A stretch of DNA of 64,000 nt from Octopus vulgaris (taxonomy: Eukaryota), in the NCBI GenBank assembly GCA_951406725.2, contig OX597823.1, positions 13,888,001 to 13,952,000 on the forward strand, in the 5' to 3' direction. Position numbers and translations under genes: made by a program. Positions 10,575-63,677 of the stretch are shown here, piece after piece. The notes under the pieces are model-generated. The model did no database searches. It was not told the DNA's origin and worked only from the letters and a program-made list of their open reading frames with translations. The first letter of the stretch is position 1; each line of letters begins with the position of its first letter.

Positions 10575-11143
10575 CAGTAGTTTTATTTTTGTAGCGTGCT
10601 TTCACTTCACTACCGAGCGCAGCTCTGTGTGCCTTGGGTATGTGCTGTGATTTGTTGTGATACTCTGATGGTTATTGTATGGAAAGTGTTCTGCGTAAGG
10701 ATGTGTGCAGTGCCTAGTAGTGCAATTTTCTGTATGTTATATGTGTTTGTAAGTCCTGGTGTTTTTGTTATGTATTTATCTGAATATTTTTTTATCATGC
10801 CTAATGCACCTACTATGATAGGAATTGTTTCTGTTTTCAGATTCCACATTCTAGTTACCTCTATTTCCAGGTCTTTGTATTTTGAGAGTTTCTCCATTTC
10901 TTTTAGAGACACGTTGTCATCAGCCGGTATTGATACATCAATTAGAAAGCATTTTTTTCTTCATGATCTCTGACAACTATATCTGGTCTGTTGGCCTTAA
11001 TTTCTCTATCTGTGTGTATCGGCATATCCCAGAGTATGGTTGCTTTCTCGTTTTCTGTGACCTTTTCTGGTGTGTGTCTATACCATCTTTTTTCTGTTGT
11101 TATTCCATAATGTTGACATAGCTTCCAATGTATGTAGGTTCCA
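10575..11143 (-). mobile_element. 5'-truncated R4/Dong-clade non-LTR retrotransposon (restriction-like endonuclease domain plus 3' UTR)
   Basis: Translates to IHWKLCQHYG...ILWDMPIHTDREIKANRPDIVV...(frameshift) LIDVSIP...KLSKYKDL...PIIVGALG...IQKIALLGTAHIL, a PD-(D/E)xK RLE domain. Flanked by (TAA)n on both sides. Confidence 0.9.
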
Positions 11144-11199
11144 ATTATTATTATTATTATTATTATTATCATTATTATTATTATTATTATTATCATCAC

Positions 11200-11271
<72 letters not shown>

Positions 11272-11585
11272 GATATATCCCCGTAATGATTAAGAGCTCG
11301 GGCTACTAACCCCAAGATTGCGAGTTCAATTCCAGACAGTGAGACGGAACCTGGAACCATGTGGTTGGTAAGCAAGCTACTTACCTCACAGCCACTCCTG
11401 CGCATGCATATCATTTTATAATGTCATTGTATATGCATGTAATTATTGTAGAATGGAATTGTATGTGCGTATTATTGTAGAATATTATTGTAGATTGTAA
11501 TTGTAGAATGTAATAATTCTATACACCTTAATTCATTCAGCCAGGTAATTCATGAGAGCCACTGCCTGGTACAGCATCAGGGCAT

Positions 11586-19422: not shown

Positions 19423-20200
19423 AAGGTGGCAAGCTGGCAGAAATGCGTAGCCGGGCGAAATTCGTAACCGCATTCCGTCTGCCGTTACGTTCTGAGTTCA
19501 AATTCCGCCGAGGTCGACTTTGCCTTTCATCTTTTCGGGGTCGATAAATTAAGTACCAGTTACACACTGGGGTCGATATAATCGACTGAATCCGTTTGTC
19601 TGTGCTTGTTTGTCCCCTCTGTGTTTAGCCCCTTGTGGGTAGTAAAGAAATAGGTATTTCGTCTGCCGTTACGTTCTGAGTTCAAATTCTGCCGAGGTCG
19701 ACTTTGCCTTTCATCTTTTCGGGGTCGATAAATTAAGTACCAGTTACACACTGGGGTCGATATAATCGACTGAATCCGTTTGTCTGTGCTTGTTTGTCCC
19801 CTCTGTGTTTAGCCCTTTGTGGGTAGTAAAGAAATAGGTATTTCGTCTGCCGTTACGTTCTGAGTTCAAATTCCGCCGAGGTCGACTTTGCCTTTCATCT
19901 TTTCGGGGTCGATAAATTAAGTACCAGTTACGCACTGGGGTCGATATAATCGACTTAATCCGCTTCTCTGTGCTTGTTTGTCCCCTCTGTGTTTAGCCCC
20001 TTGTGGGTAGTAAAGAAATAGGTATTTCGTCTGCCGTTACGTTCTGAGTTCAAATTCCGCCGAGGTCGACTTTGCCTTTCATCCTTTGGGGGTCGATAAA
20101 TCAAGTACCAGTTACGCACTGGGGTCGATGTAATCTGACCCCTTTGTCTGTCCTTGTTTGTACTCTCTATGTTTAGCCCCCTTGTGGGCAGAAAAAGAAA
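19423..20200 (+). mobile_element. SINE family N (Nin-domain-like gcctttcatc...ggggtcgataaa) with its body repeated ~4 times at a 184-bp period
   Basis: cgtctgccgttacgttctgagttcaaattc occurs at 19476, 19660, 19844 and 20028. A single head lies at 19423. Confidence 0.9.
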
Positions 20201-20357
20201 TTGAGATGAAATGCTTTGCTTATGAACACAACACACCACCCGGTCTGGGAATTGAAATCGCGATTTCGCGATCGTGAGTGTAACACGCTAACCACCAAGC
20301 CATGCTCCTTCATATATATGGTAATATACACATACACACACAAACACACACACATAC

Positions 20358-21260: not shown

Positions 21261-21264
<4 letters not shown>

Positions 21265-21563
21265 AGACGCAATGGCGCAGTGGTTAGGGCTGCGGACTCG
21301 CGGTTGTAGGATCGCGGTTTCGATTCCCAGACCGAGCGTTGTGAGTGTTTATTGAGCGAAAACACCTAAATCACCCCGAGGCTCCGGCAGGGGGTGGTGG
21401 CGATCCTTGCTGTACTCTTTCGCCACAACTTTCTCTCACACTTTCTTCTGTTGGCCTGCTCGCTTAGCCAGCGGAGTGGCGTCACTTGAAGGTTAAAACA
21501 ATGCGAAGTGCATTGTGACTAGCGATGTGTAGCAACATCTGATAGCCTGGTCGGTCACGATGA
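21261..21563 (+). mobile_element. SINE family R with a second type of 3' tail
   Basis: gtggagacgcaatggcgcagtggttagggctgcggactcgcgg...ttcgattccc. Diverges from the 4005 and 58628 copies after ctttctctcac. Confidence 0.85.
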
Positions 21564-21569
21564 TATATA

Positions 21570-22184
21570 GATGATAGGCAATACACCTTGAAACCATGGT
21601 CCGTGTGTGGTTTCCGCTTCATCGGGGAATTACCTCCCTTTGCAGGTTTAGGGCACCGTGACGGTGTCGAGCCTTTCTGGTGACGTCGATGTTCGCCTGG
21701 GGGCTAAATGCAACAGTAACACCCCCACCACCCTGCCCTGTCCCTAGCCATATTCAGATGGCTTTAGTCCCTTATGTTGTCGAGCAGTTACTGTCTATAT
21801 TCCTTTTAGAGAATTATTATTGCTTTCGAACAGATTTTCGAAATCAGCAAATGTATTTTGCTTGAAAATCTATATAAGAAAATCCTGCAGAGAGAGAATT
21901 CGTCGAGGAAGCGGAGGCCTACCACACGCCGATGATAGGCAATACACCTTGAAACCATGGTCCGTGTGTGGTTTCCGCTTCATCGGGGAATTACCTCCCT
22001 TTGCAGGTTTAGGGCACCGTGACGGTGTCGAGCCTTTCTGGTGACGTCGATGTTCGCCTGGGGCTAAATGCAACAGTAACACCCCCACCACCCTGCCCTG
22101 TCCCTAGCCATATTCAGATGGCTTTAGTCCCTTATGTTGTCGAGCAGTTACTGTCTATATTCCTTTTAGAGAATTATTATTGCT
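21570..22184 (+). mobile_element. HHR-containing ~1.7-unit tandem repeat (361-bp unit), retrozyme- or PLE-pLTR-like
   Basis: 21570-21824 matches 21931-22184 apart from one G indel. An HHR sits at the unit junction and TA repeats flank the element. Confidence 0.85.
21908..21981 (+). ncRNA. Type I hammerhead ribozyme (CCGAUGA core variant), predicted cleavage after GUC at 21962
   Basis: cacacg CCGATGA t agg-caataca-cct t GAAAC CATG GTC cgtgtg. Stem III is the palindrome ACCATGGT. Stem I extends as gaagcggaggcc/ggtttccgcttc. Confidence 0.8.
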
Positions 22185-23259
22185 ATATATATATATATAT
22201 ATATAAAGTTTCATGGGCCAAGAGACTTGCCAAAAACCAAAAGGTGCATGGGGCGTAGATGTAGAACCATTTAAGGAATTTTTTAAACCCACATCACAAA
22301 GCAACAAGCGCAATTAAGGGTAGCTTTCTCCATTTCACTGATCCTCCAGAACTGATCCCGAAAAGAGGGCTGTGAAAATAAAATGATACAAACTAACTCG
22401 ATGACAAAGGGGGTCCAGCATGGCTATGACTTCTAGCTGAAACAATATGTGTGTATGTGTTTGTGTGTGAGTGTGCGTGCGCGTGTTTGTGTGTGCATGT
22501 GTGTGTATGTATGTATGTATTTTAAGCATACGTATAAACGCTTTATTGAAGAAGCAATACATAATCTTTAGACTGTTTCCTCAGCGATTTTAAGAGTAAA
22601 AATAACCAGAAGTGATAAATGTAGGAAACAGTCATAAATGATTATAGTTATGACATGTGTCAAATTGTTTAAACGAAGGATGTCTCAATGAGAAGGCTTT
22701 ATAACAAATTAAGACGTAATTAACACTATGACCGAAATAAAAGCAAAATGATTAAAAAATATACGAAGCAAAGAAGATACGTATACATGCAGCTTACTGA
22801 GATATTAGCTAATATTTCACCACCAAGGCCACGACATGTGAGTAGAATGTCGAAAATGAAACCGATCTAGGGACACTCCTGTCTAAAGATGATTCATTAC
22901 TTCATGGTGTTGCAAGATGAGGTAAAGGTAATAGGAGAAAGAAAAGGAAAATGTAACGAATACTTTCTACATGGAATTATCACTCAATGTCGCAGCGAAT
23001 AACCGCTAGATCCATCAATTTTCATCTGCGAATCCCTTTGATTACTATTTTAGTTTGGTGGACCTCCATTGTCATTCGACGTTCAAAGACTAGTTTTATA
23101 GATTCTTTTTTTTTTAATTCCTATTTTTCTTTTCACACATTAAATTGTGTAGGTTGAACGATGTAAACTGTTAGAAAAAGAAACCTAGCCCCTTCTTGCA
23201 TTACATACCAATACATATATTTAAAGCAAAATTTTTTAAGAAGGCCTTAAAATACTGTT

Positions 23260-26348: not shown

Positions 26349-26502
26349 TATATATATACATATATATGTATATATATGCTTTAGATCCTAAATGCAAGTG
26401 CATATAATTTTATAAGTGTATGTATTTAGCTATAACCTATATAAATGTCATAAGGTAATATTTAACGCTTCCATCAGATATATGGAATTTTAAATATAAT
26501 TA

Positions 26503-27053
26503 AAGTTGAAGCCCCTCAAAGGGCAATCACAAAAAAGATAGATGGCATGACAGGCCTCGACTATTGGGGTCGACTAGAAAAGCTAAAGCTTTATTCTCTC
26601 CAACGTCGTCGTGAGCGCTACATCATCTGCATGATGTGGAAAATATTCCATCAGCATTGCCCAAATGATGTTGGCATCACCTTTAAGGTACATCCAAGGC
26701 TTGGGCCCCGTGCCATCCGCCCAAAACAAAAATCGCACTCTCATCTCATAACAACAATACGGCACAATTATTTCACCTCAATTGGCCCCGCTCTCTTTAA
26801 CATTACACCAAAACACATTAAAACAGAAACTGACCCTATAGGGCTCAAGAAGTCTCTGGACAGATTCCTTCAAGAAATCCCGGATAAACCCCCTACACCC
26901 GGATATGTCTCTGTAAACAATAACTCTCTACTTGAGTGGGCAAAAGTGCCCAAATTCTGACTTGAAAGACTTCACCAGGTGGTGCTATTAAGTTAGACAT
27001 GGCCTGGGCCAATAATGGCCGAAACCTATCAAAGTATCAAAGTATCAAAGTAT
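26503..27053 (+). mobile_element. 5'-truncated CR1-group LINE (ORF2 C-terminus, 3' UTR, tandem tail)
   Basis: Translates to VEAPQRAITKKIDGMTGLDYWGRLEKLKLYSLQRRRERY...LKKSLDRFLQEIPDKP. Tail is (tatcaaag)x3. Confidence 0.9.
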
Positions 27054-29259: not shown

Positions 29260-30706
<1,447 letters not shown>

Positions 30707-62792: not shown

Positions 62793-63677
62793 GTTTAAAT
62801 ATTTGTTGTGCAAGATTTTTTATGTGAAGTCGTGTGTTGAAATAGATATTGTTATATTTCGGAATGGTCATTTTGCCAGTTTAGCCAATAAAAACATACG
62901 CACTATATATTTGGTGTTACTTTGCTTCAGTGTTATTTATTTTTTACATTCATCTTAATCTTATTTCGGCCAGAGTTCTTTCGTCACACTCCTGTGACCG
63001 CATCAGTGGTCCTTTGTTTTCTTCTTACTTATTTGTGTCTCTCCTTACTAACCGTCAGCCATTTTGTATTTCTATTGTATGTCTTCATTTGCGCATGCTT
63101 ATATCTCTATGTGCGTTTATGTTTATTTAGTGTGTGTATGTGGGGGTGCCTGTAATATTTGTATCTTCTGTTTATATATGTTCATGTAATTTGTAATTTT
63201 TTTTTATATGGTCATGTAATTTGTATTTTGTTTTTTGCTTTTTGTTTTTGTTGTTTTTGTTTATTCTTATTTTGTTCATGTGTTTCCATCCACCCGTTAT
63301 TAGGGGAAACGGCAAGAAGCATAGGAGAGCGGGTAAATGAGCATTGGAGACAACTCAAGAAAGGTAAAAGCTCTTCGATTCTGTACCAACACGCCGAACA
63401 AGAACACGGGGGATCAATCAATAACATAGAAATTAAAATATTATCCACACACAGATCAGATGCAACAATTAGACAAATTACAGAAGCTACACACATAATA
63501 GAAAATAAACCTAGCCTGAATAGAAAACTAGAATGGAGCACTAACACACACCACAACATATGACGATAGAGGATCCTGAAAACATAATAAATACACAGAT
63601 AAATAAATAAACTAATAGAAATAAATAACTATATATATATATATGTATATGTATATGTATATATATATATGTATATA

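Follow-up and report, generated by a model that had tools for sequence, protein, structure and literature searches.

The insertion and its unit

The window (the whole stretch of 64,000 nucleotides analysed, from contig OX597823.1 of Octopus vulgaris) carries a 615-bp insertion of a tandem repeat in the TA tail of an older element. Its features are the following:

21264..21569, + strand: older, abundant SINE-like element, outside the retrozyme family, whose TA tail took the insertion
21570..22184, + strand: whole insertion, a single arm of 615 bp (1.7 units), 5'-truncated at about unit position 329, the 3' end being site B, into (TA)n
21570..21601, + strand: partial hammerhead (from G5), predicted cleavage after 21601
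21602..21962, + strand: monomer between two predicted cleavage sites, 361 nt, with an extra G in the G run 21699-21703
21884..22007, + strand: long predicted rod with the hammerhead at its tip (z -6.8)
21923..21968, + strand: complete type I hammerhead motif; stem I 21923-28/21963-68, core CCGAUGA 21929-35 (U4C), stem II 21937-39/21947-49 over a U.U mismatch, GAAA 21951-54, 2-bp stem III with palindromic loop, C17 at 21962
22139..22184, + strand: 46-nt "tail" between site A (after 22138) and site B (22184), the putative RT start sites
22185..22205, no strand: (TA)n target tract at the 3' junction

The near-identical direct copies reported in the first-pass annotation, and the single G by which they differ, are borne out by the alignment: 21570-21702 equals 21931-22063 (133 nt, 100%, spacing 361) and 21700-21824 equals 22060-22184 (125 nt, 100%, spacing 360), the extra G sitting in copy 1. 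The unit length of 361 given there has to be revised, since the family unit is 360 nt and the extra G is private to the window copy. The motif GAAACCATGGTC is present in each copy, as had been claimed (21590-21601 and 21951-21962), these being its only two occurrences in the window when up to one mismatch is allowed (mean expected by chance, 0.26). The first hammerhead begins at G5, without the 5' strand of stem I, while the second had rightly been called complete, with its CCGAUGA core at 21929. The longest stop-to-stop frame across the element is 98 aa, in agreement with the earlier view that it holds no credible coding ORF, and TA repeats flank it on both sides as described: a short TATATA on the left, which is the tail of the SINE-like element, and about 11 TA on the right. 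The rod that had been paired by eye coincides with the computed MFE structure of 21875-22015 (z -6.8; 0 of 200 shuffles). Moreover, the folded monomer gives a z of -5.1 and the circular monomer an MFE z of -5.0, so that the unit is strongly self-paired, and an internal copy of the 46-nt tail lies at 21779-21824.

As regards the surroundings, 21264-21569 is SINE-like and has a tRNA-like head; ARAGORN found no tRNA within the window. Positions 21500-21569 are covered by many sequencing-run contigs, which part ways at 21569. This SINE-like element lies directly upstream in the same orientation and might supply read-through transcripts. Frames at 63156-63563 (+), 26466-26960 (+), 10581-11289 (-) and 29462-29863 (-) are presumably fragments of decayed transposons (GIY-YIG-like, LINE-like and mariner-like), and a 184-bp tandem repeat occupies 19472-20201. 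The stretch is found, in whole or in part, in 20 of 24 sequencing runs, none of them on record as RNA. A contig of 390 nt overlapping 21500-22260 was present in each of two runs (contigs from four runs were compared); its length, 360+30, is the one inferred for a closed cycle read with 31-letter words, and a circle, a multimer transcript and DNA would all give 390.

Fixed ends, inverted arms and a covarying motif

A search for the unit in the same genome returned at least 336 matches from 40 of 752 candidates, all 150 matches listed being 99-100% identical, and most matches are tandem arrays of the 360-bp unit. A further 130 loci were fetched (L-numbers denote loci of this genome): 30 came from unit matches; another 60 were drawn from lists of end patterns, comprising the first 40 "unpaired" entries and 20 paired ones; the remaining 40 consisted of 35 from a second haplotype search and five paired loci. 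Identity to the youngest unit ranges from 74 to 100%, as a ladder of subfamilies; the largest arrays reach about 23 units, with up to about 15 units per arm, and no LTR arrangement was seen in them. Hundreds of loci with fixed 3' ends, variable 5' truncation and an age ladder point to dispersal by retrotransposition. No ORF coding for RT and GIY-YIG, as an autonomous Penelope-like element (PLE) would have, was found in the element or fused to it at 131 loci. At the level of sequence, the element is a non-coding, non-autonomous non-LTR retrozyme, in keeping with the first-pass annotation, which had proposed a non-coding tandem hammerhead element of this kind; each unit bears the motif, and 360 bp lies within the range of about 150-450 bp by which such units are defined. 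In addition, there is a sister family whose unit is about 357 bp (three tandem copies measured 346, 357 and 358); its core is the canonical CUGAUGA and its tail is conserved. Older sister families at L171-L200, L241-L245 and L049:9231-9491, with stem III loops TCGA or TGCA, show the same tail and inverted arms (2591 candidates at first look).

The 3' ends fall at two internal sites 46 nt apart, A at about unit position 176 and B at about 222, each followed by (TA)n. Genome-wide, 725 exact B ends joined to TA were counted, together with 283 A ends on the forward strand, or roughly 560 overall, the reverse-strand list of A ends counting most sites twice; the reversed controls gave 0 for both. 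A further 1267 exact read-through matches across site B are internal unit copies. The circularly permuted endpoints expected earlier do not occur at both ends: the 3' ends are fixed at 176 and 222 and variation is confined to the 5' ends. Since the 5' ends alone vary, the start of the window copy inside the ribozyme core, once read as fitting a circle, is simply the point where copying stopped.

Most insertions consist of two arms placed head to head, and the pairing of the ends is close to strict. Over contig 1 and the initial 94 Mb of contig 2, 85 B and 65 A ends include 42 divergent pairs, each of them A+B. Among the fetched inverted insertions, 96 of 104 were A+B (66/69 and 30/35), seven had an eroded end, one was B+B and none was A+A; the sole B+B locus is L228, whose second arm measures 42 nt. 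The rule also held in 25 of the 27 loci picked by one end only. The longer arm ended at A in 24 cases and at B in 38, and arm lengths correlate (rho 0.55, n=62). The paired 5' ends lie within 30 nt of each other on the circle in 24 of 62 pairs (11.4 by permutation); 25 of the 62 arm junctions overlap by at least 2 nt, one inverted 8-mer being reused at three loci. Fold-back copying of one arm was considered and ruled out, as either arm can be longer and unit-private changes are mostly unmirrored. Target-site duplications are unreadable inside the (TA)n tract. One complex inversion junction, at L032:3906-4773, contains a degraded unit along with some 570 bp of unrelated repetitive DNA. The window copy belongs to the 22 single-arm loci among the first 91 and, having one whole hammerhead only, is probably a dead-end daughter.

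The hammerhead motif gave no Rfam hammerhead match at E<=5. Nevertheless, its pairing is maintained in 94% of cases, as compared with 16-53% in slid controls. Changes on both sides were found in 9 of 14 named pairs (1 of 500 shuffles; 39 distinct natural copies, the alignment still including two chance rows), and this covariation covers stems I and II, the 3-8 pair and the palindromic stem III. In the 87 loci parsed of 121, the 3-8 pair is C3-G8 in 72, U3.G8 in nine and U3-A8 in six, with no C.A. The loop of stem III varies among four palindromes (CATG, CTAG, TCGA and TGCA), and thus stays palindromic, as expected for the dimeric fold through stem III; that fold, and a U3-A8 pair in a PLE, have been reported (PMC4209133). 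These patterns suggest a motif kept by selection, the covariation counts being inherited and going back to only a handful of independent events.

The youngest subfamilies carry the U4C core (55 of 87 loci), older ones U3-A8 or U3.G8. The U4C change considerably lowers activity in vitro, yet works in a viroid (PMC3088659). The predicted active fold lies 7.4 kcal/mol above the MFE, a slipped register competes for stem I, and the palindrome duplex is computed at -11.2 kcal/mol; such an unstable active fold could shield a circle from being cut again. The U4C core also appears in other hammerhead motifs, at L104:6806, L105, L101:2783 and L065:200, one of them in an autonomous PLE, and seems common in this genome.

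Uniform arrays and the nature of the template

If one circle is copied repeatedly, a change in the RNA should recur in every unit, and an error made by the RT or later should be confined to a single unit; this is the logic of Roll-Seq (PMC11331410). The arrays behave in this manner. Over 97 loci, 1133 of 1146 cells of locus by diagnostic site were uniform, 760 of them spanning both arms, while 17 haplotypes were found among loci; 12 of the 13 non-uniform cells are due to single units. Furthermore, locus-private variants are fixed in every unit of both arms at L043, L048, L055, L056 and L146, in up to 12 of 12 units. The predicted cleavage site is passed without pile-up: arm ends within 5 nt of it numbered five (4.5 expected, 332 passages) and three in a second set (2.1 expected, 141 passages), which gives eight nearby ends, as compared with 6.5 expected, in 473 passages, with one indel near the junction. 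All eight ends fall at positions 1-4 and may, as a weak hint, mark a minority of linear cut templates. Together, array uniformity and unbroken passage suggest rolling-circle copying of one RNA.

Locus-specific changes in several units occur at L052 (position 304), L162 (positions 16 and 51-56) and L214 (position 314). Those of L052 and L162 lie in non-adjacent units of both arms and could stem from an ambiguous (edited or damaged) template base or from gene conversion; more generally, the partly shared variants of the three loci could reflect conversion or a multimer template. The private fixed variants were rich in A>G (7 of 22 rows, compared with 7 of 144 singletons, p 0.0005). The excess was not replicated in 40 fresh loci, mostly selected by closeness to one haplotype (1/6 and 3/54, p 0.35), and A>G did not differ significantly from T>C (p 0.34), so that an origin by ADAR (A-to-I) is a hint only, with selection for wobble pairs as the alternative.

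As to the enzyme, the insertions display what is known of passengers of EN+ PLEs: a tail between two internal 3'-end sites, an inverted 5'-truncated copy and an AT-rich target. PLEs are described as occurring in partial tandems with a truncated copy in inverted orientation, their tail of 30-40 bp often being confined to one end (PMC8557442). In an anole PLE studied in vitro, the tail spans two internal RT start sites, unprocessed RNA is used, the hammerhead is dispensable and start sites are alike on both strands (PMC11167929). Intact RT+GIY-YIG elements with a CX4CX2C linker, of Neptune or Nematis type by the description in PMC8557442, are inserted in TA in the same genome, and the three inverted autonomous copies (L096, L098 and L104) all end A+B in their own sequence. 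The Penelope-type mobilisation proposed in the first-pass annotation is supported by the paired fixed ends, the tail and the inverted arms in TA; its permuted endpoints are not, and a circular template is probable.

A terminal sequence shared with the unit was not found in 50 plus 20 PLE loci (about six families); the search drew on a Pfam GIY-YIG screen, in which 150 of 6136 candidates were scored, on scanning 50 PLE loci with profiles and BLAST, and on 20 more loci from the family of the PLE fragment in L194. A degenerate hammerhead pattern gave five matches, all sister-family like. PLE fragments near the unit are separated from it by TA tracts (L059, L206) or lie 190 to about 960 bp away (L111, L134, L224). 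At L194:873-1722, between TA tracts, a PLE RT fragment (61% aa identity to L102) is fused directly to a sister-family retrozyme; this chimera is likely a template switch and is a single hint of the partner lineage. L102:2581-6281, together with L091-L101, represents a young, apparently intact PLE family whose many copies share about 99% identity. It has an ORF of 479 aa followed by an overlapping one of 781 aa in another frame (RT+GIY-YIG), a putative U3-A8 minimal hammerhead near the end (by eye) and a 39-nt tail.

We consider it likely that a PLE-type RT/GIY-YIG protein copies a hammerhead-released RNA circle of 360 nt repeatedly into cut (TA)n. A tandem array would be transcribed; the hammerhead, probably acting as a dimer via the palindromic stem III, would free monomers, which the host would ligate into circles. 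A protein dimer would cut both strands in (TA)n; on a single RNA, one 3' end would prime at unit position 222 and its partner at 176, and each RT would run 0.1 to about 15 rounds. Head-to-head joining of the two cDNAs would follow, in many cases through short inverted microhomologies, unless an arm is lost, the window copy being a one-arm, site-B product. Against this reading stand the anole results given above (unprocessed RNA, dispensable hammerhead, no strand difference in start site) and a report that eight of nine Xenopus retrozyme dimers failed to cleave (bioRxiv 2026.07.22.740005). More tentatively, an asymmetric RT-endonuclease dimer might place A at one end of the (TA)n and B at the other on one 360-nt ribozyme circle, with mutual cDNA displacement for up to 15 rounds, and RNA changes (possibly A-to-I editing of the rod) would be fixed in every daughter unit and seed subfamilies; this fuller version is possible rather than probable.

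The most serious competitor keeps the element and the enzyme but takes as template an uncleaved linear multimer from an existing array, with a weak or dispensable hammerhead. Unprocessed RNA is the main in vitro substrate of the anole PLE (PMC11167929), the U4C core and unstable active fold would suit such a template, seamless passage of the cleavage site is equally expected, and at L052 the two units without the private G have index 5 and 6 of opposite arms. However, a new variant would begin in one unit and yield mosaic daughters, whereas the diagnostic cells are almost all uniform across sweeping haplotypes and private variants are fixed throughout whole arrays; arrays could only get shorter over generations, and the hammerhead covaries. 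We therefore regard the linear multimer as unlikely. Less probable still is a cleaved linear monomer on which the RT jumps from the 5' end to its own 3' end each round: it accounts for uniform haplotypes equally well and for the eight arms that stop at positions 1-4, but the passages show no clear pile-up and only one indel close to the junction. Mosaics, the expected outcome of jumps onto other molecules, were not seen.

Later amplification of short insertions into minisatellites by unequal crossover or conversion, as proposed for vertebrate retrozymes (bioRxiv 2026.07.22.740005), would homogenise arrays too, and eight variants are partly shared, for instance by three adjacent units in L214. 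Divergence is 0.66% within an arm and 0.50% between arms (39 loci), and 2.4% and 1.7% in the eight older loci; within-arm divergence not being below that between arms argues against satellite-type amplification. Variants are star-like, with 102 singletons against six partly shared (144 against eight with stricter filters and more loci); neither nested sharing nor closer units within an arm was found. The longest arrays also count among the youngest, at 99-100% identity. Amplification of this sort thus appears quite improbable, much as the jumping monomer does. Finally, the repeat might be the terminal repeat of a coding PLE, all end features of PLE pLTRs being present, or an assembly artefact, as the extra G could have arisen through a slip of the assembly or of the RT. 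The first-pass annotation had named both as what would overturn it, and both are largely refuted and hardly credible now: the unit reads through itself at the 131 loci, none of which finishes an RT/GIY-YIG ORF, and identical fixed ends recur at hundreds of loci. The copied circle remains the preferred reading.

Relation to known elements and significance

The family resembles the metazoan non-LTR retrozymes (Cervera and de la Pena 2020, PMC7229834) in its non-coding tandem unit of a few hundred nt with a type I hammerhead each, its short palindromic stem III, its strong self-pairing and the co-occurrence of PLEs; mussel retrozymes measure 350-390 nt, and the HHR_Amex2 of axolotl Rtz_353 shares the U.U at the base of stem II. 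There, cleavage and circles were demonstrated, whereas for the octopus family both are predicted; the youngest core here is U4C and older subfamilies have the U3 variants given above; and the available text of that paper mentions neither fixed paired 3' ends nor inverted arms, and contains no haplotype analysis by array. Copying of retrozyme circles by PLEs was proposed in it, not demonstrated.

With EN+ PLEs (Craig 2021, PMC8557442) the family shares AT-rich or (TA)n targets, partial tandems, a head-to-head inverted copy and a tail at one end, but the octopus unit has no ORF, its tail is 46 nt instead of 30-40, and up to about 15 units occur per arm. As in anole Poseidon (Frangieh 2024, PMC11167929), two internal RT start sites lie downstream of the hammerhead without target homology; here each arm uses strictly one site, in contrast to the in vitro system, where the sites were common to both strands. 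Vertebrate retrozymes, regarded as PLE derivatives (bioRxiv 10.64898/2026.07.22.740005), are likewise non-autonomous, PLE-dependent tandem hammerhead repeats; in Xenopus, known TEs are matched by 24 of the 57 families, PLEs (their pLTR regions) accounting for 21 of the 22, and local amplification of the satellite type has been put forward. For the present family no PLE sequence match was found, and the variants speak against later amplification. The Chlamys non-autonomous elements, such as MRC1 (PMC8557442), are also non-coding PLE passengers with multicopy head-to-tail insertions; they are green algal, mostly without canonical hammerheads, and their 3' end is similar to that of the autonomous partner.

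In the literature searched (few subscription journals, without Repbase), no description was found of a cephalopod retrozyme, of the one-site-per-arm rule or of per-array haplotype evidence, although cephalopod retrozymes, or further detail on the insertion model, may appear in the supplement of PMC7229834; for the giant squid genome, 235 Rfam hammerhead matches have been counted only (PMC6962438). The class, that of non-LTR retrozymes, is already known; the record of its mechanism seems to be new.

Taken only as one more retrozyme, or as a record from a new host, the family would be ordinary. Copying of retrozyme circles by PLEs has been a hypothesis since 2020, and the inverted copies and one-sided tail of PLEs are an acknowledged puzzle; this young family joins the two through insertion footprints. 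The near-strict rule of one arm per start site is new relative to the only in vitro system, and for reconstitution the unit offers a candidate substrate of 360 nt whose start sites are mapped. Moreover, haplotype analysis per array, over both arms, is transferable to the retrozymes of corals, mussels and salamanders. If the reading of an asymmetric dimer were true, the octopus genome would be a natural rolling-circle sequencing record of Penelope transposition.
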